Below are positions 7,443 through 38,520 of a stretch of DNA of 64,000 nt, in pieces. Below the pieces are notes generated by a model. That model saw only the letters and a program-made list of their open reading frames with translations. It did no database searches and was not told where the DNA came from. The stretch lies in assembly GCA_046565705.1 (NCBI GenBank), contig JBKHYE010000114.1, positions 2,164 to 66,163 on the forward strand, in the 5' to 3' direction. The number at the start of each line of letters is the position of its first letter. Position 1 is the first letter of the stretch. The translations under genes were made by a program, and so were the position numbers. The stretch comes from Actinomycetes bacterium (GTDB taxonomy: Bacteria > Actinomycetota > Actinomycetes > Mycobacteriales > SCTD01).

Positions 7443-7772
7443 TCAGGCGGCGACCAGCGGGGAGACCCGCTGCGCGAGCCAGGAGAGCCCGTCGGGGTCG
7501 AAGCGCAGGTCGCGCCAGCCGTCGAGCAGGGCGTCGACGTCGGCCTCGCGCTCGAGCACCGCGAGCACCCGTACGTCGGTGCAGGAGCCGTCGTAGCCGT
7601 CGGCGCGGCACAGGTACAGCTCACCGGTGTCCCGCAGCCACGACAGCCGCCAGGCGTCGTTGGACCCGGCGACCCGCCAGGTCGCGCCGAAGTCGACCTC
7701 CGAGGAGGTGCGCCGGCGCGGGTCGGCGGCGCAGAACTCGTCCTCGTCCGCCCAGGTCGACAGAACGTGCAC
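7443..7772 (-). CDS. Hypothetical conserved small protein
   Basis: Only the last 109 codons of track ORF 7443..8342 are credible. GTG 7772 is preceded by AGGAGG 5 nt upstream. Sequence: VHVLSTWADEDEFCAADPRRRTSSEVDFGATWRVAGSNDAWRLSWLRDTGELYLCRADGY... No family recognised. Confidence 0.6.
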   Translation of the reverse strand: MHVLSTWADEDEFCAADPRRRTSSEVDFGATWRVAGSNDAWRLSWLRDTGELYLCRADGYDGSCTDVRVLAVLEREADVDALLDGWRDLRFDPDGLSWLAQRVSPLVAA

Positions 7773-7867
7773 GGGGACCTCCTGCGGGTGTGCGGACGCC
7801 GGTCGCCCGCACGACGCGGGCACGTCCGGAGAGGTTGCCTGCCGGAGCCGTCCGGCGGGTGTCGGCG

Positions 7868-8509
7868 ATGAGAAGAGTTCGTGACGGTCCTGACTGGCAC
7901 ACTCCGCACGTGCCCGAACCGCTGCGCAGCAGGTGCTTCGGCGACGGCGACCCGCTCTACGAGCGCTACCACGACGACGAGTGGGGACGGCCGCGCACCG
8001 ACGAGCAGGGCCTGTACGAGAAGGTCTGCCTCGAGGGGTTCCAGGCGGGTCTGTCGTGGATCGTCGTGCTGCGCAAGCGGGCGGCGCTGCGCGAGGCGCT
8101 CGCCGGCTTCGACCCCGACGCCGTCGCCGAGCTCGACGTCGCGCCGCTGCTCGACGACGCCCGGCTGATCCGCTCCGAGCGCAAGCTGCGCGCGTGCGTG
8201 ACCAACGCCCGCGCCACGCAGCGGCTGAGGGACGACGGCGGGCTGCCGGCGCTGCTGTGGGCGGCGGCGGAGGTGCCGAGCCCGGCATACCAGCACTGGA
8301 CGGACGTGCCGGCGTGGACGCCGTCGAGCGCGGCGGTGGCACGGGAGCTCAAGCGCCGCGGGTTCGTCTTCGTCGGGCCCACGACGGTCTACTCGCTCAT
8401 GCAGGCGTGCGGGCTGGTGGGTGACCACCTGACCGGGTGCCCGCAGCGCGAGCGGGCGGAGCGGGAGCGGCACGCGGTGGTGCGGCCCGGGCCCGTGCGG
8501 CCCGGGTAG
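7868..8509 (+). CDS. tag: DNA-3-methyladenine glycosylase I
   Basis: RCFGDGDPLYERYHDDEWGRP...LCLEGFQAGLSWIVVLRKR...VGPTTVYSLMQACGLVGDHLTGC parallels E. coli Tag. ATG 7868 is taken as the start. GTG near 7910 is an alternative. Confidence 0.85.
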   Translation: MRRVRDGPDWHTPHVPEPLRSRCFGDGDPLYERYHDDEWGRPRTDEQGLYEKVCLEGFQAGLSWIVVLRKRAALREALAGFDPDAVAELDVAPLLDDARLIRSERKLRACVTNARATQRLRDDGGLPALLWAAAEVPSPAYQHWTDVPAWTPSSAAVARELKRRGFVFVGPTTVYSLMQACGLVGDHLTGCPQRERAERERHAVVRPGPVRPG

Positions 8510-8518
8510 CGGCCGGCG

Positions 8519-8617
8519 CTACAGGACGCCCAGCAGCAGGAGCAGCAGCGCCGTGACGGCGAGCGAGAGCAGGATGCTCGGCAGGCACCCCAGCCGGTTG
8601 CTGAAGAAGAAGAACAC
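8519..8617 (-). CDS. Candidate 32-aa hydrophobic micro-protein
   Basis: GTG 8617 gives VFFFFSNRLGCLPSILLSLAVTALLLLLLGVL-stop. This is one TM helix after an FFSNRLGC motif that I believe recurs in short annotated peptides of other bacteria (memory only). The longer 71-aa track ORF would have to start inside the palindromic element. Confidence 0.35.
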   Translation of the reverse strand: MFFFFSNRLGCLPSILLSLAVTALLLLLLGVL

Positions 8618-8711
8618 GGGTGCGGTGTGCCCGCTCGCGGGCGGTTCAGCAGGAGATGTCGCGCACACCGGACGAGGGCGGGCGCGGCGCACCGTCGCGC
8701 CGGCGGGCGCC

Positions 8712-24208: not shown

Positions 24209-25312
24209 TCATGCGTCCGCCAAAGCGATGGTCTTCTCGACGTCCTGCCGGCGCGCTTCGAGCTCGCGCTTCTCGCGGTCGAGCGCCTCGGCGATGTCCT
24301 CGTCGGCCCTCATCAGCGCGCCGAGGTCGGTGCCGGCCATGTCGAGCACCCCCATGTCGGCGTAGGCCTTCTGCACCTTCTCGCCCCAGAGGCCGATGTC
24401 CTTGACGCACGGCACGATCCGCGTGAACAGCAGCGACTGGTAGAGCGTGAAGTACGGCGAGTGCTGGACGGCCTCGAGGCACGCGCGCACGTCCAGGCCC
24501 ATGTTCTGCCAGACCTCCTGCATGCGGAACCGGTCTCGCATGAGCCAGCAGCCCTCGACGACGAACTCCTCGCGCTCGGCGAGCTCCTTGCTGGACAGCT
24601 GGCTGTAGTAGTCGCGCAGCGCCAGCCGGCCGAACGCCACGTGCCGCGCCTCGTCCTGCATGACGTAGGCCAGGATCTGCTTCGGCAGCGGCTGCGTCGT
24701 CATGTCGCGCAGCAGCCCGAACGCGGCCAGCGCCAGCCCCTCGATGAGCACCTGCATGCCGAGGTAGGGCATGTCCCAGCGGCTGTCGGAGAGCGTGTCG
24801 TCCAGCAGCGACTTCAGGCTCGGGTTGATCGGGTAGACCAGCTCGACCTTCTCCTGCAGGAAGCGGGCGTAGGTCTCGGCGTGCCGCGCCTCGTCCATGG
24901 TCTGGGTGGCGGCGTAGAACTTGCTGTCGAGGTCGGGCACCGACTCGACGATCTTGGCCGAGCAGATCATCGCGCCCTGCTCGCCGTGCAGGAACTGGCT
25001 GAACTGCCAGGACGTCAGGTGCTGGCTGAGCTCGTCGATCGCCTTCTGGTCGCCCTCGAACCGCGCCCACTGGTCCGTGCCGTAGATCGAGATCGTCTCG
25101 ACCGGCAGCCCCAGCACGTTCGCCGGGTCGACGTCGACGTCCCAGTCGATGCGGTGGACCGAGTCCCACTGCTTGTCCTTGCCCTTCTGGTACAGGGCGA
25201 GCAGCCGGTCGCGGCCGTCGTCGTACTCCCAGGTGAACCGGGAGGCGCCCTGCATCTCGACGTCCCACGTCGCGTGCTCGACAGGGACGGTGTAGAGCTC
25301 GTGCGTGCTCAC
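24209..25312 (-). CDS. Ferritin-like diiron-carboxylate oxygenase family protein (AurF/R2-like fold)
   Basis: Last 367 codons of the 542-aa track ORF. GTG 25312 overlaps the TetR stop (GTGA). Two E-x2-H diiron motifs (TMDEARHAETYARF and VMQDEARHVAFG) plus additional Glu helices (FLHGEQGAM, VLIEGLALA). Confidence 0.75.
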   Translation of the reverse strand: MSTHELYTVPVEHATWDVEMQGASRFTWEYDDGRDRLLALYQKGKDKQWDSVHRIDWDVDVDPANVLGLPVETISIYGTDQWARFEGDQKAIDELSQHLTSWQFSQFLHGEQGAMICSAKIVESVPDLDSKFYAATQTMDEARHAETYARFLQEKVELVYPINPSLKSLLDDTLSDSRWDMPYLGMQVLIEGLALAAFGLLRDMTTQPLPKQILAYVMQDEARHVAFGRLALRDYYSQLSSKELAEREEFVVEGCWLMRDRFRMQEVWQNMGLDVRACLEAVQHSPYFTLYQSLLFTRIVPCVKDIGLWGEKVQKAYADMGVLDMAGTDLGALMRADEDIAEALDREKRELEARRQDVEKTIALADA

Positions 25313-25905
25313 TCGTGCTCCTCGTTCTCGGCAGGCAGGGGCAGCAGTCGGGCGACCAGGCGGGCGACGTCGTCGGCGACCTGCTCGGGGCGGCCGCCGG
25401 GCAGGACCAGGTGGGACAGCGTGAGCCGGGTGACGACGTCGGCGGCGAGGCGGACGTCGTCGGCCGGCAGCTGCGGCCACTGGGCCAGCAGCTGCGCAGT
25501 GGTGCGGCGCGCGGCGACCTCGTGCAGCTGCTCCGCGCGGCTGGTGATGTAGGGCAGCAGCCCGCCGCCGCCGTCGACCGAGCTGTCGGTCAGCACGGCC
25601 TTGAGCAGCGGGTTGTCGGCGGCCGCGCGCAGCGTGTACTCGACGCGGGCGCGCAGCGCCTCGGCCGGGCTCGCGTCGTGGCCGGCCCGCGCGGCGTCGG
25701 CGCCGTCGACGTAGCGCTCGGCCTCGCGCAGCGCGAGCGCCTGGGCGAGGCCGTCCTTGCTGCCGAACTCGTAGTACAGCGTCTGCCGGCTCAGCCCGGC
25801 GGCGCGCGCGACGTCGGCCATCCGCGTCCTGGCCCACTCGCCCGCCACCACCGCGTCCGCGGCGGCGTCGAGCAGCAGGTCCCGCGTCGGTGTGCGCTGC
25901 GCCAC
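25309..25905 (-). CDS. TetR/AcrR-family transcriptional regulator
   Basis: GTG 25905. N-terminal HTH RTRMADVARAAGLSRQTLYYEFGSKDGL. Translationally coupled to the diiron gene. Confidence 0.9.
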   Translation of the reverse strand: MAQRTPTRDLLLDAAADAVVAGEWARTRMADVARAAGLSRQTLYYEFGSKDGLAQALALREAERYVDGADAARAGHDASPAEALRARVEYTLRAAADNPLLKAVLTDSSVDGGGGLLPYITSRAEQLHEVAARRTTAQLLAQWPQLPADDVRLAADVVTRLTLSHLVLPGGRPEQVADDVARLVARLLPLPAENEEHE

Positions 25906-25959
25906 ACCCGCTACCCTGACACGGGCCGCCGCTTTGTCAAGACACCGCGGCCGACGGTG

Positions 25960-27051
25960 TCAGCCGGTCGGCCGCCCCTCAGCCGGCAGGTCCTGCTGCT
26001 CGCGCGGCGCCACCCGGACGACGACGACCCGGTCGGCCTTGCGCAGGCGCAGCGAGGTGGCGGCGTCGAACATCAGCGTCTGGCCGTCGCGGACGACTGC
26101 GACGACGAGGTCGCGCGTCTCGCGAGGGGCCAGCCCCACCTCCTCCCGCAGCACCTCGCGCTCGGTGAGCTCGAGGCCCTGGCCCGGGACGAGCAGGTCC
26201 TCGAAGATCGCGCCGGTCGACGGGCTGGCGACCGCGACGCCGAGCAGCCGGCCGGCAGCCTCCGACGACACGACGACGCCGTCCGCCCCCCCGTCGCGCA
26301 GCAGGCCGGCGTTCTCGCTCTCGCGCACCGCCGCGACGATGTAGGCGCCCTCGTTGTGCCGGCGCACGGTGAGCGTGACGAGCACGGCGGCGTCGTCGCG
26401 CGGGACCGCGACGATCACCCGCGCCGCCGTGTCGATCTCGGCCCGGCGGAGCACCTCCGGCCGGGTCCCGTCGCCGGCGATGGCCGCGATGCCGTCGTCG
26501 GTGGCGTCCGCGATGTGGTCCGGGTCGTTGTCGACCACGACGATCTGCGCGGGGTCGGCGCCGTCCTCGAGCAGCGCGCGCACGGCGCTGCGCCCCTTGG
26601 TCCCGTACCCGACGACGACCGTGTGCTCGCGCAAGGACTTCCTCCAGCGGTTCTGCCGGATCTGCTCCCTCGTGCGCTCGGTGAGCACCTCGAGCGTCGT
26701 GCCGACCAGCACGACGAGGAACAGGACCCGCAGGGGGGTGATGACGAAGATGTTCACCAGGCGCGCGGCGTCGCTCACCGGTGTGATGTCGCCGTAGCCC
26801 GTGGTGGAGAGGCTGACCGTGGAGTAGTAGACCGCGTCGAGGAAGGAGAGCCCGTCGCCGAGCTTGTCGGCGTAGCCGGCGCGGTCGAGCCACACGACCA
26901 CGGCCACCGACATCAGCACGACGAGCGCGACGACCATGCGGCGCAGCACCGCCGCGACCGGGCCGCGCTCGGACTCCGGGATGAGCAGCCGCGCGCCCAG
27001 CCGGCCCGCCGAGCGGGCCACCGGCTCGGTCGGCCGGTGCGTAGCGGTCAC
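25960..27051 (-). CDS. Potassium channel with cytoplasmic RCK/TrkA-N and TrkA-C domains
   Basis: Two TM segments flank the selectivity filter SLSTTGYGDITP. Rossmann motif VVVGYGTKGRSAVRAL. The C-terminal TrkA-C-like beta domain is also present. Confidence 0.88.
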   Translation of the reverse strand: MTATHRPTEPVARSAGRLGARLLIPESERGPVAAVLRRMVVALVVLMSVAVVVWLDRAGYADKLGDGLSFLDAVYYSTVSLSTTGYGDITPVSDAARLVNIFVITPLRVLFLVVLVGTTLEVLTERTREQIRQNRWRKSLREHTVVVGYGTKGRSAVRALLEDGADPAQIVVVDNDPDHIADATDDGIAAIAGDGTRPEVLRRAEIDTAARVIVAVPRDDAAVLVTLTVRRHNEGAYIVAAVRESENAGLLRDGGADGVVVSSEAAGRLLGVAVASPSTGAIFEDLLVPGQGLELTEREVLREEVGLAPRETRDLVVAVVRDGQTLMFDAATSLRLRKADRVVVVRVAPREQQDLPAEGRPTG

Positions 27052-27101
27052 CGGGCGAGCGTAGGCGCGCGGGTGGCGCGCGGCTGCGCGACACTCGACG
27101 C

Positions 27102-29039
27102 GTGCAGCCCGCCGCCGGTGCCGGCCCGTCCGCCGAGGGCGACGAGCACGACCTCGACGACCGCCCCGGCGACCCGGTGGTCGTCGAGCCGTGGCTCGGC
27201 GCGCCCGCCCGCTCGTACCGGCGCCGTCCCGGCAGCGTCAGCGCGGTGCTCGACCGGGCGGTGCTCCGGTGGCCGGACCGCACCGCGTTCGTCGACGTCG
27301 ACGGCACGTCGGTCGGCTACCGGGACTTCGCCGACCGGGTCGAGGTCGCGGCCCGCTCGCTGCGCGCCCGCGGGCTGCAGCCCGGTGACGCGGTGGCGGT
27401 CGCCTCCGGCAACACGCTCGCGCTGGCGACGGCGGTGTTCGCCTGCGCCCGCGCGCAGCTGGTGCTCGTCGGGCTGAACACGCGGCTCGCCCCGCCGCAG
27501 TGGGCCTACATGCTCGAGCACATGGGCGCCCGGCTCGCCCTCGGCAGCGCGGCGTTCCTCGCCGGGCTGCGGGAGGCCGGCGCCACGGGCGCCGAGCCGC
27601 TCGAGGAGGTGCTCGCGGAGGGCGGGCCGGCGCTGCTGGACGAGCCGCGGGACGAGGCGGCGACGTACGCGGTGGTGTTCACGTCCGGGACGACAGGACG
27701 GCCGAAGGCGTCGCAGGTGGTGCACCGCTGCTCGGTGCACAGCGCGATGAGCTACCAGCGGGTGCTGCGGCTCGGTACGGACGACGTCACGGCGGTGTGG
27801 TTCCCGCTGTACTACATCTCGGCGATGCACGCGCACGTGCTGCCGGCGATGCTGGCCGGCGCGACCTGCGTGCTGGCCGACACGTCGTCGCCGCGCGAGT
27901 TCGTCGACCTCCTCGAGCGGTACCGGGTCAGCTGGGCGTACGCCGTGCCGTCGTGGTGGCGGCTGTGCCTGCGCGTGCCGGAGCTGTCCCGCGACCGCCT
28001 CCCCGCGCTCACGCGCGTCGCAGCCGGCGGCGCGCCGTTCCCCGCGGACCTGCAGACGGCGCTGCGCGACCGGCTCGACGGCGTCCGCCTGCTCGACGTG
28101 TACGGCTTGTCGGAGACCCACTCGCCCGGCTGCATCGCGGACGACGACGACCTGCGCGCGCGGCCGGGCACCGTCGGCCGGCCGCTGGACTGCATGGAGG
28201 CCGAGATCCGCGACGACGACGGCCGGCCGCTCCCGGCGGGCGAGCCCGGGACGCTGTGGCTGCGCGGCTCGCTCGTGACGACCGGCTACGCGGGCGACGA
28301 CGAGGCCACGGCGGAGGCCGTCGTCGACGGGTGGTTCGACACGGGCGACGTCGCCCGCGTCGACCACGACGGCCGCGTCACCGTGCTGGACCGCACCAAG
28401 GACATGATCAACCGGGGCGGGACGAAGATCTTCTCGGCCGAGGTCGAGGAGCTGCTGCGGCAGCACCCGGCGGTCGAGGACGCGGCCGTCGTCGGGGTGC
28501 ACGACGCGCTCGCGGGCGAGGCGGTCGCGGCCTTCGTGGTCCCGCACGACACCGGGGCGCCGGCGGTGACGCCCGCCGAGGTGCGTGCGTGGGTGCGGGA
28601 GCGGATGGCCGACCATGCGGCTCCCAAGGTGGTCGAGCTCGTCGACGCGCTGCCGCGCAACGCGGTCGGCAAGACCGACAAGGCGGCGCTGCGGGCACGG
28701 CTGGGCGCCGGGCCGCCGACCTCCCCGGCGCCGGCCGCCGACCGGGTCGACAGCGGGGTCGTCCTCCACGCCCTGGCCGAGCCGCACCGCGCCGAGCTCG
28801 TCCGCCTGCTCGTCGACCGCCAGCTGCCGGTGCGCGACCTGGTCGCCGTCACCGGCATGGCGCAGCCGCTGGTGTCGCACCACCTGCGCGTGCTGCGCGA
28901 GGCCGGGCTCGTGGACAGCAGCACGCGGGCCGGGCTGTCGGTGTACCGGGTCCGGCCCGACACGCTGTCCGAGCTCGCCGACCGGCTGCAGGGCCTGGCC
29001 GCCCGGGCCGCCGGCACGGCGCGCACGACCCCGTGGTGA
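27102..29039 (+). CDS. Adenylate-forming (ANL) acyl ligase fused to a C-terminal ArsR/SmtB winged-helix DNA-binding domain
   Basis: ANL motifs VVFTSGTTGRPKA, VYGLSET, DGWFDTGD, DRTKDMINRGGTKI, LPRNAVGKTDK. After the linker GAGPPTSPAPAADR, the same frame gives LHALAEPHRAELVRLLVDRQLPVRDLVAVTGMAQPLVSHHLRVLREAGLVDSSTRAGLSVYRV. The 5' start (GTG 27102) is uncertain. Confidence 0.85.
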   Translation: MQPAAGAGPSAEGDEHDLDDRPGDPVVVEPWLGAPARSYRRRPGSVSAVLDRAVLRWPDRTAFVDVDGTSVGYRDFADRVEVAARSLRARGLQPGDAVAVASGNTLALATAVFACARAQLVLVGLNTRLAPPQWAYMLEHMGARLALGSAAFLAGLREAGATGAEPLEEVLAEGGPALLDEPRDEAATYAVVFTSGTTGRPKASQVVHRCSVHSAMSYQRVLRLGTDDVTAVWFPLYYISAMHAHVLPAMLAGATCVLADTSSPREFVDLLERYRVSWAYAVPSWWRLCLRVPELSRDRLPALTRVAAGGAPFPADLQTALRDRLDGVRLLDVYGLSETHSPGCIADDDDLRARPGTVGRPLDCMEAEIRDDDGRPLPAGEPGTLWLRGSLVTTGYAGDDEATAEAVVDGWFDTGDVARVDHDGRVTVLDRTKDMINRGGTKIFSAEVEELLRQHPAVEDAAVVGVHDALAGEAVAAFVVPHDTGAPAVTPAEVRAWVRERMADHAAPKVVELVDALPRNAVGKTDKAALRARLGAGPPTSPAPAADRVDSGVVLHALAEPHRAELVRLLVDRQLPVRDLVAVTGMAQPLVSHHLRVLREAGLVDSSTRAGLSVYRVRPDTLSELADRLQGLAARAAGTARTTPW

Positions 29040-30114: not shown

Positions 30115-31164
30115 GTGACGACCGCCGCCCCCGCGCGTGACCTGCTGGCCGACACCTCGGCCCTGTGCCAGGAGCTCGCCGCCGACGCCCGCCGGCTCGA
30201 GCGCGACGGTGTCACCCGCGACAACGTCCGGCGGCTGGCCGACGCGGGGCTGCTCGCGGTCTACGGCCCGCCGGAGCTCGGCGGCGCTCCGCCGGCCGAG
30301 CAGCGCCAGGTGGCCGAGCTGCTCGCCGGCGCCAGCCCCGACGCCTGGTTCGTCTGGTACCAGCACGGCCCGGTCGTGCGCTTCCTCGCCGCCAGCGACA
30401 ACGAGGACCTCAAGGCCCGCTGGCTGCCGGTGCTCTGCTCCGGCGACGCCGTCGGCGGCGTCGCGTGGAGCAACCTGCGCACCGCCCGCCCGTCGGTGTC
30501 CGCGCAGCGGGCCGGCTCCGGCTGGGCACTGACCGGTCCGCAGCCGTGGTGCACCGGCTGGGGCATGCACGACGCGCTGTTCGTCGGCGGCCGCACGGTG
30601 CCCGACGACGGCGGCGCCCCCGAGGTGGTGTTCGGGATCGTGCCGGCCGACCGGCCGGGGCTGGTGGGGCAGGGCGAGCTCGAGCTCGCCGCGATGGGCG
30701 GCACGTCGACCCACGCCGTCCGCTACGAGGGCCTGGTGGTGCACGACGACGAGCTGATCCTCCGCAAGGACTTCGCCGCGTGGGCCGCGGCCGACACCGT
30801 GATGAACCGCAACGTGCAGCCGTCGACGTTCGGCATCGCGCTCGCGGCACTCGAGCTGCTCCAGGCGGCGTCGCCGGCCACCGCGTCCGCGCTGCGCGAG
30901 CGGGTGCTGTCCGTGCGCGAGCGGGCCTACCGGCTGATGGACGAGGTCGACCCGGCCGAGGCCGGTGACGAGCGGCTCGCGCTGCGGGCCTCGGCTCTCG
31001 TCCTCGGCGTCGAGGCGTGCACCGCGCTGGTCGCCGCGCGCGGCGGGCGCGGCATGGGTCTGGACGACCCGGCGCAGCGGCTGCTGCGCGCTGCGGCCTT
31101 CCAGCTGGTGCACGCGCAGGCCGCGCACGTCCGGGAGGCCACGCTCACCGCGCTGGCCGGCTGA
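30115..31164 (+). CDS. Acyl-CoA dehydrogenase-fold flavoprotein (short, type-2-like)
   Basis: GTG 30115, the last 349 codons of track ORF 29551..31164. ACAD-like layout (LADAGLLAVYGPPELGG, WFVWYQHGPVV, GWALTGPQPWCTGWG, TSTHAVRYEGLVV). I could not find the usual C-terminal catalytic Glu context. Confidence 0.7.
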   Translation: MTTAAPARDLLADTSALCQELAADARRLERDGVTRDNVRRLADAGLLAVYGPPELGGAPPAEQRQVAELLAGASPDAWFVWYQHGPVVRFLAASDNEDLKARWLPVLCSGDAVGGVAWSNLRTARPSVSAQRAGSGWALTGPQPWCTGWGMHDALFVGGRTVPDDGGAPEVVFGIVPADRPGLVGQGELELAAMGGTSTHAVRYEGLVVHDDELILRKDFAAWAAADTVMNRNVQPSTFGIALAALELLQAASPATASALRERVLSVRERAYRLMDEVDPAEAGDERLALRASALVLGVEACTALVAARGGRGMGLDDPAQRLLRAAAFQLVHAQAAHVREATLTALAG

Positions 31165-31166
31165 CG

Positions 31167-32711
31167 GTGGAGCCGGGGCTCGTCGAGGAGGTCGTCGGCG
31201 GCGTCCGCGTCCGCTGCTGGGCGACCCGGCCGACCTCGCTCGTCGACCTCCTCGGGCAGGCGCTGTGTCGCTCCGCCGACGACGTGCTGCTCGTCGATCC
31301 GGCGCTCGGCCGGACCGTCACCTACGCGCAGTTCGCGGCGCTCGTCGAGGGCGCCGCCGAGACGCTGTCGGGCCGCGGGCTGCGACCGGGCGACCGCGTG
31401 GCGGTGCTGGTGCGCAACGGGCTCGCGGCCGCCGTCGCGCTGTGGGCGTGCGCGCGCGCCGGCCTCGTGCACGTCGGGCTGCCCGCCGACGCGCCGCCGG
31501 CCCGGCTGGCGGAGCTGGTGGAGCTCACCGGTCCCGCGCTGGTCGTCTGCGCGCCGGAGCTGCGGCCGCTGGCGGCCGACACCGGGCTCGACCCGCAGGA
31601 CGCCGCCGAGGTCCTCCTCGGCGCCGAGCGCCCGTGGGAGCACGGCCGGGCGCTGCCCGACGAGGACGAGACGTACGCGCTTCTCGCCACCAGCGGCACC
31701 ACCGGCCGGCCCAAGGCGGTCCGGCTGACCGGCCGGATGGTCGGCCACGCCGCCGTCGCCTACACCCGGCTCCTGGGCCTCACTCCGCGCGACCGCACCG
31801 CGATCCACCTGTCGTTCGCGTGGGTGTCGGGGCACGTCACGCAGCTGGCGCCGGCCATGTGGTCCGGCGGCTCGGCGGTGACGATGCCGGCGTTCAGCGC
31901 GTCGGCGCTGCTCGAGGTCTGCCGCGAGCACGGCGTCAGCTGGCTCGACGTCGTGCCGAGCATCTGGGAGCTGCTGCTGCGGCAGCCGGGCTTCCGCGCC
32001 GCCGAGCTGCCGGCCGTGCGGGCCGCCGTGTTCGGCGGCGCACCGGCGCCGCCCGGCACGCTCGAGCGGGTCCGCGAGCGGGTGCCGCACCTGCGGCTGC
32101 TCGACGTGTACGCGCAGTCCGAGACGTGCGCGCCGGTGACCGTGCTGGGCGACCTCGACGCGCTGCGCAAGCCCGGCACCGTCGGCACGCCCGTGCCGTA
32201 CTGCGACGTGCGCGTCGTCGGACCGGACGGCGTCGCGGTGCCGACGGGCGGCACGGGTGAGATCGAGGTCCGGTCGCCGACCGTGACCCCGGGCTACTGG
32301 CCGCCCGACGTCGCGCCGGTCACGGACGGCTGGCTGCGCACCGGTGACGTCGGACGGCTCGACGACGAGGGCTTCCTGACCGTCAGCGGGCGCGCGGTCG
32401 ACCTCGTGATCCGCGGCGGCGTGAACGTCTTCCCGGCGGAGGTCGAGCGGGCGCTGCTGGCGACCGGTGCGCTGGCCGACGCCGCCGTCGTGGGGGTGCC
32501 GTCTGCGGTCAGCGGCCAGAACGTGGCGGCGGCCGTCGTCCCGCTGCCCGGGCACGACGTCGACGTGCTGGCGCTCCAGCGCGCCGTCCGCGACGCGCTC
32601 GGCGCGCACGCCGTGCCACGACCGCTGCGCGTCGTCGACGACCTGCCGCGCGGGCGCAACGACAAGCTCGACCGGGCGGCGGTCGCCGCGCTGCTCGCGA
32701 CGCCGCGCTGA
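31167..32711 (+). CDS. Second adenylate-forming (ANL) acyl ligase
   Basis: GTG 31167, 2 nt after the upstream stop. LLATSGTTGRPKA, VYAQSET, DGWLRTGDVG, DLVIRGGVNVFP, LPRGRNDKLDR. Confidence 0.85.
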   Translation: MEPGLVEEVVGGVRVRCWATRPTSLVDLLGQALCRSADDVLLVDPALGRTVTYAQFAALVEGAAETLSGRGLRPGDRVAVLVRNGLAAAVALWACARAGLVHVGLPADAPPARLAELVELTGPALVVCAPELRPLAADTGLDPQDAAEVLLGAERPWEHGRALPDEDETYALLATSGTTGRPKAVRLTGRMVGHAAVAYTRLLGLTPRDRTAIHLSFAWVSGHVTQLAPAMWSGGSAVTMPAFSASALLEVCREHGVSWLDVVPSIWELLLRQPGFRAAELPAVRAAVFGGAPAPPGTLERVRERVPHLRLLDVYAQSETCAPVTVLGDLDALRKPGTVGTPVPYCDVRVVGPDGVAVPTGGTGEIEVRSPTVTPGYWPPDVAPVTDGWLRTGDVGRLDDEGFLTVSGRAVDLVIRGGVNVFPAEVERALLATGALADAAVVGVPSAVSGQNVAAAVVPLPGHDVDVLALQRAVRDALGAHAVPRPLRVVDDLPRGRNDKLDRAAVAALLATPR

Positions 32712-35521: not shown

Positions 35522-36262
35522 GTGTTGGATCGAGCCGTGACCGCCCCCGCCCGGAGCGGCTGGATGGACCTGCTCGGCCTGGCCGAGGACGAGGTGCCCC
35601 GGCTGCTCGTCCTCGAGAGCACCTGGTGGCGCCAGGACGCCCTGGACCGCCGGCTGACCGCCCTGTCCGACGTCCGCGAGCTCGGCATGCCCGACCTGTG
35701 GCACGGCTGGCACGGGGAGCTGCCGGTCGCCTACGGCGTCGTCTACGGCGCCCCGCACGCCGTCGAGCGGGTGCACGTGCTCGGGACCTGCGGCACGCCG
35801 GTCGTCGCGCACCTCGGGTCGTGCGGGGCGCTGTCGCCGGCGCTGCAGGTCGGCGACATCGTGCTGCCGGAGAAGGCCACGATCGGCGAGGGGGCCTCGC
35901 AGTACTACGGCGGCAGCGGCGCCGCGCCCGCCAACCTCGGCAAGGTCGCCCGCGCCGCCGCGCTGCTGGCCGCGCGGGGCGTGCATGCGCATCGCGGCAC
36001 GACCGTGACGACGTCGGCGGCGCTGGCGATGCCGGCCCGGCTGCTCAAGCAGTGGCAGAAGGCCGGGCACCTCGCCGTCGACCTGGAGGCCTCGGCCGTC
36101 TTCTCGGCGGCGGCGGCGTTCTCGATGCGCGCGGTGTCGCTGCTCTACGTGTGGGACGCGCTGCCGCGCCGCCCGGTCTCCGCGGAGTTCACCGAGGAGG
36201 AGCAGGAGGCGCAGGAGCACGCCGCCGCCGAGGTGTGGGACATCGCCCTGCAGCTGGGCTGA
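35522..36262 (+). CDS. Nucleoside phosphorylase superfamily (PNP_UDP_1-like) protein
   Basis: VAHLGSCGALSPALQVGDIVLPEKA, GTTVTTSA, HLAVDLEASAVFSAA resemble the phosphorylase-1 fold. The start is uncertain (GTG 35522, GTG 35537 or ATG 35564). Confidence 0.55.
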   Translation: MLDRAVTAPARSGWMDLLGLAEDEVPRLLVLESTWWRQDALDRRLTALSDVRELGMPDLWHGWHGELPVAYGVVYGAPHAVERVHVLGTCGTPVVAHLGSCGALSPALQVGDIVLPEKATIGEGASQYYGGSGAAPANLGKVARAAALLAARGVHAHRGTTVTTSAALAMPARLLKQWQKAGHLAVDLEASAVFSAAAAFSMRAVSLLYVWDALPRRPVSAEFTEEEQEAQEHAAAEVWDIALQLG

Positions 36263-37507: not shown

Positions 37508-38272
37508 CTACACCCCGACGGCGCTGAACCCGCCGTCGACGAACACCGTCGTGCCGGTGGTGCGCGGGAACCAGTCGCTGAGCAGCGCGACGCACGCCTT
37601 GGCGACGGGCTCGGCGTCGTCGGCGTCCCAGCCGAGCGGCGCGCGCGCGTCCCACACCCGCTCGAGCTGCTCGAAGCCCGGGACCGAGCGCGCTGCCATC
37701 GTCCGCAGCGGGCCGGCCGCGACCAGGTTGACGCGGACGCCCCGCGGACCGAGGTCGCGGGCGAGGTAGCGGCAGGCGGACTCGAGGCCGGCCTTGGCCA
37801 CGCCCATCCAGTCGTAGGACGGCCAGGCCACGCGGGCGTCGAAGTCGAGCCCGACGTACGAGCCGCCGTCCTGCAGGAGCGGCAGGCAGGCGCGCGCGAG
37901 GGCCGGGAACGACCAGGTGCTCACCTGCAGCGCGGTGGCGACGTCCTCCCACGAGGTGTCGAGCAGGCCGTTCCCCAGCGCGCTCGGCGGCGCGAACCCG
38001 ATGGCGTGCAGGACGCCGTCGAGCCCGCCGACGTGCTCGCGCAGCCGGTCCGGCAGGGCGGCGAGGTCGTCCTCGCTGGTGACGTCGAGCTCGCCGCCGG
38101 GCGGCTGCCCCGGCAGCCGCCTCGCGACCCGCCGCGTGAGCTGCATCGGACGGCCGAAGCTCGAGAGCACCACCGTCGCGCCCTGCTCGACGGCGAGCCG
38201 CGCGACGGCGGCGGCGATCGAGCGCTCGGTGAGGACGCCGGTGACGAGCAGGCGCCTGCCCTCGAGGATCAC
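37508..38272 (-). CDS. fabI: Enoyl-ACP reductase (NADH), FabI/InhA type
   Basis: GTG 38272 overlaps the acp stop (GTGA). LLVTGVLTERSIA. Catalytic block DFDARVAWPSYDWMGVAKAGLES has the Phe/Tyr/Lys of InhA. VRVNLVAAGPLRTMAA. Confidence 0.9.
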   Translation of the reverse strand: MILEGRRLLVTGVLTERSIAAAVARLAVEQGATVVLSSFGRPMQLTRRVARRLPGQPPGGELDVTSEDDLAALPDRLREHVGGLDGVLHAIGFAPPSALGNGLLDTSWEDVATALQVSTWSFPALARACLPLLQDGGSYVGLDFDARVAWPSYDWMGVAKAGLESACRYLARDLGPRGVRVNLVAAGPLRTMAARSVPGFEQLERVWDARAPLGWDADDAEPVAKACVALLSDWFPRTTGTTVFVDGGFSAVGV

Positions 38273-38520
38273 GCCGCGGCGTTCACCTTGGCGGCGATGA
38301 CGTCGACGAAGGCGCCGATCGTCTTGACGTCGACGAGCTCCTCCTCGGGCAGCTCGATGCCGAAGTGGTCCTCGAGGTCCATGGTGAGCTCGACCAGCGA
38401 CAGCGAGTCGACGTCGAGGTCGCTGACGAAGGACTTGTCCTCCTGCACCTGCTCGGCGTCGACCTCGAGCAGCGCGACGGCCTTCTCCCGCAGGACCTGC
38501 AGCACCTCGGCACGCTCCAT
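38269..38520 (-). CDS. acpP: Acyl carrier protein
   Basis: ATG 38520. 83 aa. FVSDLDVDSLSLVELTMDLEDHFGIELP carries the DSL phosphopantetheine site. Confidence 0.92.
   Translation of the reverse strand: MERAEVLQVLREKAVALLEVDAEQVQEDKSFVSDLDVDSLSLVELTMDLEDHFGIELPEEELVDVKTIGAFVDVIAAKVNAAA

Follow-up and report, generated by a model that had tools for sequence, protein, structure and literature searches.

An ANL-superfamily ligase fused to an ArsR/SmtB winged-helix module in uncultured actinobacteria, with apparent loss of the ancestral cysteine sensor after fusion

The 64,000 bp stretch of actinobacterial DNA analysed here (the window; contig JBKHYE010000114.1) was found to encode a protein in which a ligase of the ANL superfamily is joined in frame to a complete ArsR/SmtB winged-helix module. 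The fusion is almost certainly real and selectively maintained. It appears to have arisen once, in uncultured Frankiales/Mycobacteriales-like actinobacteria, and to have joined a ligase gene to an already neighbouring stand-alone ArsR gene with conserved cysteines, which would make it a Rosetta-stone case. Sequence comparisons further indicate that the ancestral cysteine sensor was lost after the fusion, at least for two of its three cysteines, and this post-fusion loss favours a changed regulatory input.

Analysis of the fused gene (Table 1), whose product is identical to NCBI protein P0001, revealed one open frame with both halves above curated hidden Markov model cut-offs, which confirms the in-frame fusion proposed in a preliminary description of the window made from the letters alone. 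All of the ANL motifs quoted there were located, namely TSGTTGRPK (amino acids 194-202), YGLSET (334-339), GWFDTGD (410-416) and PRNAVGKTDK (518-527). The A8 hinge motif DRTKDMI was also present, so that the window protein carries the whole ANL core motif set (A3, A5, A7, A8 and A10), and the linker sequence quoted earlier, GAGPPTSPAPAADR, was found in it as well. The assignment of the C-terminal part to the ArsR family was borne out by a HTH_5 match at amino acids 561-606 (49.2-53.8 bits; Pfam gathering score 22) and by NCBIfam NF033788 ('metalloregulator ArsR/SmtB'), which scored 72.3 bits on the C-terminal 113 amino acids (cut-off 55). The stretch 28690-28840 had been described as free of in-frame starts. 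One in-frame GTG does occur there, at 28830 (codon 577). As alpha1-alpha2 of the module have already been encoded by that point, translation from this codon could not yield a complete ArsR. The linker of six fused loci was found to contain neither an in-frame start nor a ribosome-binding site that is conserved, and the earlier conclusion that the helix-turn-helix (HTH) is not separately initiated therefore holds. Automated annotation has named the 630-660 amino acid fusion 'metalloregulator ArsR/SmtB family transcription factor' in NCBI (P0001, P0002, P0013, P0015) and often 'long-chain acyl-CoA synthetase' in IMG (P0004, P0006, P0007); either name conceals one half of the protein.

A homologue search covering 5.8 billion proteins revealed 20 full-length fused clusters (626-663 amino acids) with the three-domain architecture and 74-100% identity to the window protein. 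They came from NCBI, ENA, JGI and Logan assemblies and from Actinomycetes, Mycobacteriales and Frankiales metagenome-assembled genomes (MAGs). Three short 'stand-alone' ArsR matches proved to be contig-edge fragments of more fused genes. The next-best matches were unfused ligases of 515-536 amino acids (68-77% identity), which ended 8-12 residues past the A10 lysine. Linker length varied among the fused proteins by whole codons, with the frame always kept. The preliminary description had named a stop or frameshift separating two genes in orthologues as grounds for refutation; on inspection they carried the same fusion instead. For a gene in a MAG, an assembly frameshift, a read-through artefact or a decaying pseudogene is conceivable a priori and on no other ground, and the 23 clusters from independent assemblies, the frame-preserving linker indels and an ArsR dN/dS of 0.26 reduce this explanation to a negligible probability and effectively refute it.

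Further searches bear on how widely the architecture occurs. A representative search with amino acids 447-645 was swamped by giant non-ribosomal peptide synthetases, in which repeated AMP-binding_C matches were summed, and gives no fusion count; moreover, the fused proteins are grouped there under representatives that, at 50% identity, are unfused. A word-index search with the ArsR part only missed even known full-length fused proteins and gives no architecture count. Scans of genome contigs with the full protein and of metagenomes with the ArsR module returned mostly distant paralogues because the patterns used were generic motifs, and the only close loci obtained from them were L004, L023, L086 and L087. 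At approximately 80 distant ArsR loci, no ANL match was found.

Selection on the two halves was compared by the Nei-Gojobori method in 15 pairs from six fused loci. The ratio of non-synonymous to synonymous substitution rates (dN/dS) was 0.261 for the ANL part, 0.261 for the ArsR module and 0.521 for the linker. Purifying selection is thus equally strong on the ArsR module and on the enzyme part. Mean pairwise identity among the fused proteins was 0.80 for the ANL N-domain, 0.835 for the ANL C-domain, 0.85 for the ArsR module and 0.50 for the linker. Additionally, the P-loop, the YGLSET motif residues, E338, D416, R431 and K524 were invariant in 56 fused and unfused orthologues. Both halves look functional on these comparisons. 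Intact catalytic and DNA-binding domains, both under selection, are found in one polypeptide, which is the architecture expected of a trigger enzyme.

The closest solved relatives of the enzyme half were feruloyl-CoA synthetase 8wev, FadD5 8r2q, FadD13 3r44 and MatB (237 bits to 8weu/8wev; Foldseek E 1e-48), all of which, unlike the fusion, are without a DNA-binding domain. The medium/long-chain acyl-CoA and aryl-CoA ligases share all ANL core motifs with the fusion. No NCBIfam equivalog cut-off was reached by the enzyme half, the best being PRK06187 (367 bits against a cut-off of 476). Judged by its domains and intact catalytic motifs, this half is a bona fide ANL superfamily member, predicted to be of the acyl-CoA/acyl carrier protein (ACP)-ligase type.

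A neighbour-joining tree of the ANL part alone placed the 20 fused proteins in one monophyletic group nested among unfused orthologues. A single fused clade within unfused orthologues points to one fusion event. Fused and unfused loci also had upstream synteny in common (AroA, RsgA, AurF, TetR, and a channel or TrkH gene). The ArsR module derives from a stand-alone ArsR of about 105 amino acids; its nearest relatives were abundant stand-alone ArsRs of about 100-115 amino acids (60-73% identical). At the sister locus L170, and also at L084, a stand-alone ArsR, an ACP and an unfused ligase gene were contiguous (ArsR-> <-ACP ANL->), and the ArsR gene of L084 overlapped the end of an ANL2-like gene. 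The fusion therefore appears to have united genes that lay side by side beforehand. In L171, the gene for P0128, which is the stand-alone ArsR closest to the module, is the first of an ArsR-Aldedh-radical-SAM-PhnD-ABC operon, and the fused loci L166 and L169 keep the gene order of L171 with ANL-ArsR standing where ArsR stands. In L085 an ArsR orthologue is encoded in Aldedh-ArsR-PNP, approximately 5.5 kb downstream of the ligase operon. The window has PNP (35522-36262), but the interval that separates it from the ABC-transporter genes contains no Aldedh-ArsR, and a further copy of the ArsR seen in the fusion was not found within the 64 kb.

The C-terminal module is a bona fide member of the ArsR/SmtB family. 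The ArsR/SmtB winged-helix fold is defined as alpha1-alpha2-alpha3-alpha4-beta1-beta2-alpha5 (PMC11672702), and the topology alpha1-alpha2-alpha3-alpha4-beta-beta-alpha5 was assigned by DSSP to AlphaFold2 models of the module, both within the full-length protein (pLDDT 86, with a low-confidence linker) and alone (pLDDT 89). All of the top 50 PDB matches by Foldseek were ArsR/SmtB-type or closely related winged-helix regulators. The best was the As(III)-responsive AfArsR 6j05 (TM 0.72-0.81), and Mycobacterium smegmatis SmtB 8qkf was also matched. The recognition helix AQPLVSHHL[RK]VLR was identical, apart from R/K at one position, in 20/20 fused proteins. The same helix was present in 95/120 of the matches listed as stand-alone relatives, and a recognition helix shared by fused and stand-alone proteins leads us to expect that both would recognise the same operator.

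Cysteine counts in the 20 fused proteins and in the 120 matches listed as stand-alone differed at three sites (Table 1), with 2-3 conserved cysteines in the stand-alone orthologues. In total, 18/20 fused modules, that of the window among them, had no cysteine at all; the wing cysteine was kept in the fused P0011 and P0020. The codons at these sites bear on when the cysteines disappeared. Stand-alone genes have TGC at all three, and the window has CCG at Pro576 and CGG at Arg609. At the C-terminal site, five fused loci have TGG (Trp) and L003 has TTC (Phe), each of which is one step from TGC and two steps from the other. The wing codon is TGC in the P0011/P0020 branch and CGC or CGG in the other fused lineages. 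The TGG/TTC pattern and the surviving wing TGC indicate that two or more of the three cysteines persisted up to the fusion and were lost in parallel afterwards. No known type of ArsR inducer site (alpha3 CxC, alpha5 D/H/H/E, Cys3 As(III) or alpha2-alpha5 dithiol) was found in the window module, and its alpha5 has no His. An inducer site is not obligatory in the family, as ArsRs that lack one exist (PMC11672702, section 3.2.2). Compared with the cysteine-bearing AfArsR/CgArsR (PDB 6j05, 6j0e) and the stand-alone orthologues P0123-P0240, which have the same family and fold, the fused module lacks the conserved cysteines and the alpha5 His/Asp/Glu metal site and has a 535 amino acid enzyme attached.

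The gene context of the stand-alone relatives (MIP aquaglyceroporin, ArsM-like methyltransferase, radical-SAM protein, PhnD-type transporter and PNP), together with the structural match, suggests that the ancestral cysteines sensed a metalloid or thiol-reactive signal. The stand-alone cysteine-bearing ArsRs are themselves encoded in a recurring island (L171 5195-11330, L172 1-7369, L166 8918-14884, L169 7932-13894 and L001 10360-15087). It comprises an aminobutyraldehyde-dehydrogenase-type Aldedh, a fusion of Metallophos with an Rv1681-like radical-SAM protein, a PhnD-type ABC transporter and PNP, to which some loci add the MIP aquaglyceroporin and an ArsM-like double methyltransferase. This island may represent an organo-arsenic or phosphonate-related pathway that is seemingly uncharacterised.

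The scheme that follows, from dimerisation and DNA binding to self-repression and a link with catalysis, is inferred. Two chains would dimerise via their ArsR alpha-helices, and the dimer would bind the operator of the stand-alone ancestor and repress its own operon. With the ancestral thiol/metalloid sensor site gone, release from DNA is proposed to depend on the ligand that the attached ANL domain carries or on the conformation that it adopts. The C-terminal subdomain of ANL enzymes rotates between adenylation and thioester-forming conformations, and it is to this subdomain that the flexible linker (15-30 amino acids) is attached. The full trigger-enzyme model, in which the state of the ANL domain controls DNA binding by the ArsR module, is a serious possibility that we place somewhat below an even chance. 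That the ANL enzyme replaced the lost cysteine site after fusion as the allosteric input of ArsR, either via occupancy by substrate or acyl-adenylate or via domain rotation, is put forward tentatively and is rather unlikely in that precise form. Several observations count against control by the ANL domain. Two genuine stand-alone relatives are also without any cysteine and, taken with the inducer-less ArsRs, indicate that cysteine loss needs no new input. The downstream genes vary from one fused locus to the next, so that no single set of regulated genes goes with the fusion. The search for an operator, in 27052-27101 and in sequence shared among the ArsR-containing loci, found none, and the promoter regions of the fused L169 and the unfused L002 hardly differ, with no newly acquired site evident. 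Additionally, the fused clade is small and known solely from metagenomes.

The same cysteine loss could be read as leaving a repressor that is blind to ligand, with the ArsR module binding DNA without an inducer and the ANL domain without influence on binding. The fusion would then tie repressor dosage to enzyme dosage (negative autoregulation) or keep the inherited regulon. The missing cysteine sensor, the cysteine-less stand-alone relatives and the documented ArsRs without inducer sites (PMC11672702) are all consistent with this, and the long, poorly conserved and low-confidence linker argues against tight interdomain coupling. The parallel removal of cysteines after fusion points the other way, as it suggests that, with the new partner attached, the original input was no longer needed or did harm. 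To our knowledge, the enzyme part also acts as the sensor in the characterised enzyme-repressor fusions (BirA, PutA, NadR and RbkR). On balance a ligand-blind repressor seems somewhat doubtful. A strict analogy to BirA is a narrower version of the trigger-enzyme model, with the enzyme-bound acyl-adenylate as corepressor and the acceptor (holo-ACP or CoA) competing by consuming it. It would fit the intact adenylation motifs, including the A10 lysine, and the repeated linkage of an ACP gene to this ligase and this ArsR. However, the fold is not that of a biotin protein ligase and the HTH is C-terminal and of the ArsR type; ArsR modules dimerise alone, so adenylate-driven dimerisation is unneeded; the ACP is missing in several fused loci and an operator was not found. 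We regard it as distinctly unlikely.

It could also be asked whether the winged helix still binds DNA, or has become a dimerisation or docking module that dimerises the ligase or recruits the ACP. ArsR folds are obligate dimers (PMC11672702) and the operator searches found none, but an unchanged recognition helix across the clade would be unexpected if only the alpha1/alpha5 interface mattered, and the absence of the ACP from several fused loci also speaks against ACP recruitment; this explanation is improbable. Less probable again, and in our view very unlikely, is that the two halves act separately through linker proteolysis or internal initiation, with the fusion serving as a co-expression device. 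The flexible, Pro/Ala-rich and poorly conserved linker would allow for it, but neither a start or ribosome-binding site conserved in the linker of the six loci nor an evident conserved cleavage motif accompanies it.

Among known systems, BirA, the group II biotin protein ligase that represses the bio operon, likewise joins adenylate-forming activity to a winged-helix DNA-binding domain. BirA provides the conceptual precedent for repression that responds to an adenylate intermediate; for the fusion such a coupling is only proposed. The catalytic fold of BirA is that of the class II aminoacyl-tRNA synthetase-like biotin protein ligases, whereas that of the fusion is ANL; the BirA HTH is N-terminal and not of the ArsR type, whereas that of the fusion is C-terminal and of the ArsR type; and BirA dimerises through its catalytic domain on adenylate binding, whereas the ArsR module is itself the dimer interface. 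Because catalytic fold, HTH type and position, and dimerisation logic all differ, the fusion protein is not a BirA family member. PutA, NadR, RbkR and BzdR likewise combine a DNA-binding domain with an enzyme, or with a domain descended from one, that senses a metabolite, but none of the four has an ANL-superfamily enzyme or an ArsR-family DNA-binding domain. Archaeal RbkR consists of a riboflavin kinase and a winged HTH (PMC5397151), and BzdR of an HTH and a shikimate-kinase-like domain (PMC3602430). The RbkR enzyme remains catalytic, as that of the fusion appears to from its motifs, whereas the enzyme-like domain of BzdR has lost catalysis and the catalytic motifs of the fusion are all invariant. 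The preliminary description knew of no characterised ANL-ArsR example. No described ANL-ArsR fusion was found in the searchable literature either, including a survey of transcription-factor companion domains and its supplements, and the domain combination appears to be undescribed.

Several candidate operator sequences were examined and set aside. A repeat upstream of the stand-alone ArsR in L170, YTGACAC-N11-GTGTCAAGACA, recurred upstream of a TetR gene in eight loci; it was rejected as an ArsR operator because the gene divergent from the L170 ArsR is the TetR orthologue. The repeat GTCTCAT-N12-ATGAGAC upstream of Aldedh-ArsR in L085 was private to that contig. A conserved block upstream of the ligase gene ('cgagcgtagg / cgagactagg') was present in fused and unfused loci and so was not ArsR-specific. 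An inverted repeat at 27153-27188 (13-nt arms, 92% complementary), inside the 5' coding region of the ligase, encodes the conserved peptide LDDRPGDPVVVE (LDD...VVE), in which the Asp/Val and Leu/Glu codons are mutual reverse complements. It was judged to be a by-product of this peptide, and synonymous changes break the repeat in other loci. A scan for sigma-70 promoters and terminators found nothing.

The TetR-associated repeat deserves description in its own right. In eight loci a conserved, AT-rich inverted repeat with the sequence YTGACAC-N11-(G/T)TGTCAAGACA is found a short way upstream of the TetR(TetR_C_35)-AurF pair (window 25916-25941, L003 6699-6724, L166 5788-5813, L002 4836-4861 and L170 9336-9362 among them). 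In the window it is between the TetR gene (25309-25905, minus strand) and the channel gene (25960-27051, minus strand). It is most likely a TetR autoregulatory operator overlapping a TTGACA -35 box. The AurF-like di-iron oxygenase gene (24209-25300, minus strand) is paired with the TetR gene and is found beside the ligase locus in nearly all relatives. In L170 the AurF orthologue (7563-8644, minus strand) matched in three pieces in different frames and was called as two short genes, and it is either a pseudogene or the result of indel errors in assembly ERZ25039498.

Read on the minus strand, the conserved block upstream of the ligase gene contains a TANNNT -10 box, which precedes the divergent gene's GTG start by 6-7 nt (TACGCT at 27058-27063 in the window, at 6 nt). 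This box (TACGCT or TAGTCT) is conserved in L167, L003, L168, L166, L169, L001 and L002, and suggests that the divergent channel/TrkH gene may have a leaderless transcript.

Table 1. Coordinates of the fused gene, its domains and sites, and the neighbouring genes in the window
Feature	Position (bp)	Strand	Details
Fused ANL-ArsR gene	27102-29039	+	Single open reading frame, GTG start, 645 aa plus stop
AMP-binding N-terminal domain, aa 51-396	27252-28289	+	Pfam PF00501, 256.7 bits (cut-off 29.9)
AMP-binding_C subdomain, aa 447-524	28440-28673	+	Pfam PF13193, 79.7 bits (cut-off 24.5); ends in A10 motif PRNAVGKTDK
Pro/Ala-rich linker, aa 536-550	28707-28751	+	Indel-rich; low pLDDT at 537-540
Complete ArsR/SmtB winged-helix module, aa 551-645	28752-29036	+	HTH_5 and NF033788; conserved tail ERAAGTARTTPW
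Recognition helix AQPLVSHHLRVLR, aa 587-599	28860-28898	+	Inside ArsR module
Pro576, alpha2-alpha3 Cys ('QLC') site	28827-28829	+	Cys in 81/120 stand-alone; Pro in 19/20 fused
Arg609, wing Cys ('TVC') site	28926-28928	+	Cys in 115/120 stand-alone; Arg in 17/20 fused
Trp645, C-terminal Cys ('...PC') site	29034-29036	+	Cys in 113/120 stand-alone; Trp in 18/20 and Phe in 2/20 fused
Acyl carrier protein (ACP) gene, 81 aa	29058-29303	+	PP-binding, 50.5 bits; 18 nt past fused gene
FabI-like enoyl-ACP reductase (short-chain dehydrogenase/reductase, SDR), 255 aa	29306-30073	+	adh_short_C2, 164 bits
Acyl-CoA-dehydrogenase-like (ACAD-like) gene	30115-31164	+	Acyl-CoA_dh_N, 36 bits; start placed by comparison with L167
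Second ANL ligase (ANL2)	31167-32711	+	41% identical to ANL part of fusion
K+-channel-like gene	25960-27051	-	Ion_trans_2 and TrkA_N; divergent; conserved beside fused and unfused ligase genes
Divergent intergenic region, channel gene/fused gene	27052-27101	.	Presumed promoter/operator region

The 50-bp divergent gap in front of the fused gene, as described before, follows from the open reading frame calls. The fusion had also been described as the head of a five-gene operon. A same-strand array of ANL-ArsR, ACP, SDR, ACAD-like and ANL2 genes, with gaps of 18, 2, 41 and 2 nt, was indeed present in the window and its gene order in the closest relative, but other fused loci differ downstream. 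The order ACP-SDR-ACAD-ANL2 was found in the window and L167, SDR-ACAD-ANL2 without ACP in L168, Aldedh-rSAM-ABC (rSAM, radical SAM) in L166 and L169, and ACP-SDR followed by unrelated genes in L003. The ACP adjoins the ligase in L003, L167, L170 and L084 and is absent in L168, L166 and L169. The constant element across the fused loci is the fusion itself. The FabI-like SDR scored 277 bits against NF005908 (FabI), under the cut-off of 299. A paralogous pair is encoded approximately 8 kb downstream on the minus strand (37529-38520), comprising an ACP (38284-38520; 46% identical to that of the ligase operon) and a FabI/InhA-like reductase (37529-38272; 52% identical). This pair matches the FabD-ACP-SDR-ACAD cluster of L085, and the ACP-SDR of the ligase operon may be a duplicate of it.

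Enzyme-repressor fusions are few. BirA, PutA and NadR are the textbook examples in which metabolism acts directly on transcription, and none was found with an enzyme of the very large ANL superfamily or with an ArsR DNA-binding domain. If the ANL enzyme has indeed become the new input of its ArsR module, the protein described here would be the first trigger enzyme of the ANL superfamily and would show a repressor re-wired in nature to a new signal by gene fusion; if the coupling is real, the module could also serve as a scaffold for carboxylic-acid-responsive biosensors. Both the domain architecture and the disappearance of the sensor after fusion would interest specialists, and they offer a directly testable system. 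Close relatives between them have an ArsR that stands alone and bears cysteines, a ligase without the fusion, and the fused protein without cysteines, so that the clade amounts to a compact natural experiment, in which it can be asked how a repressor gains a new signal input by fusion.

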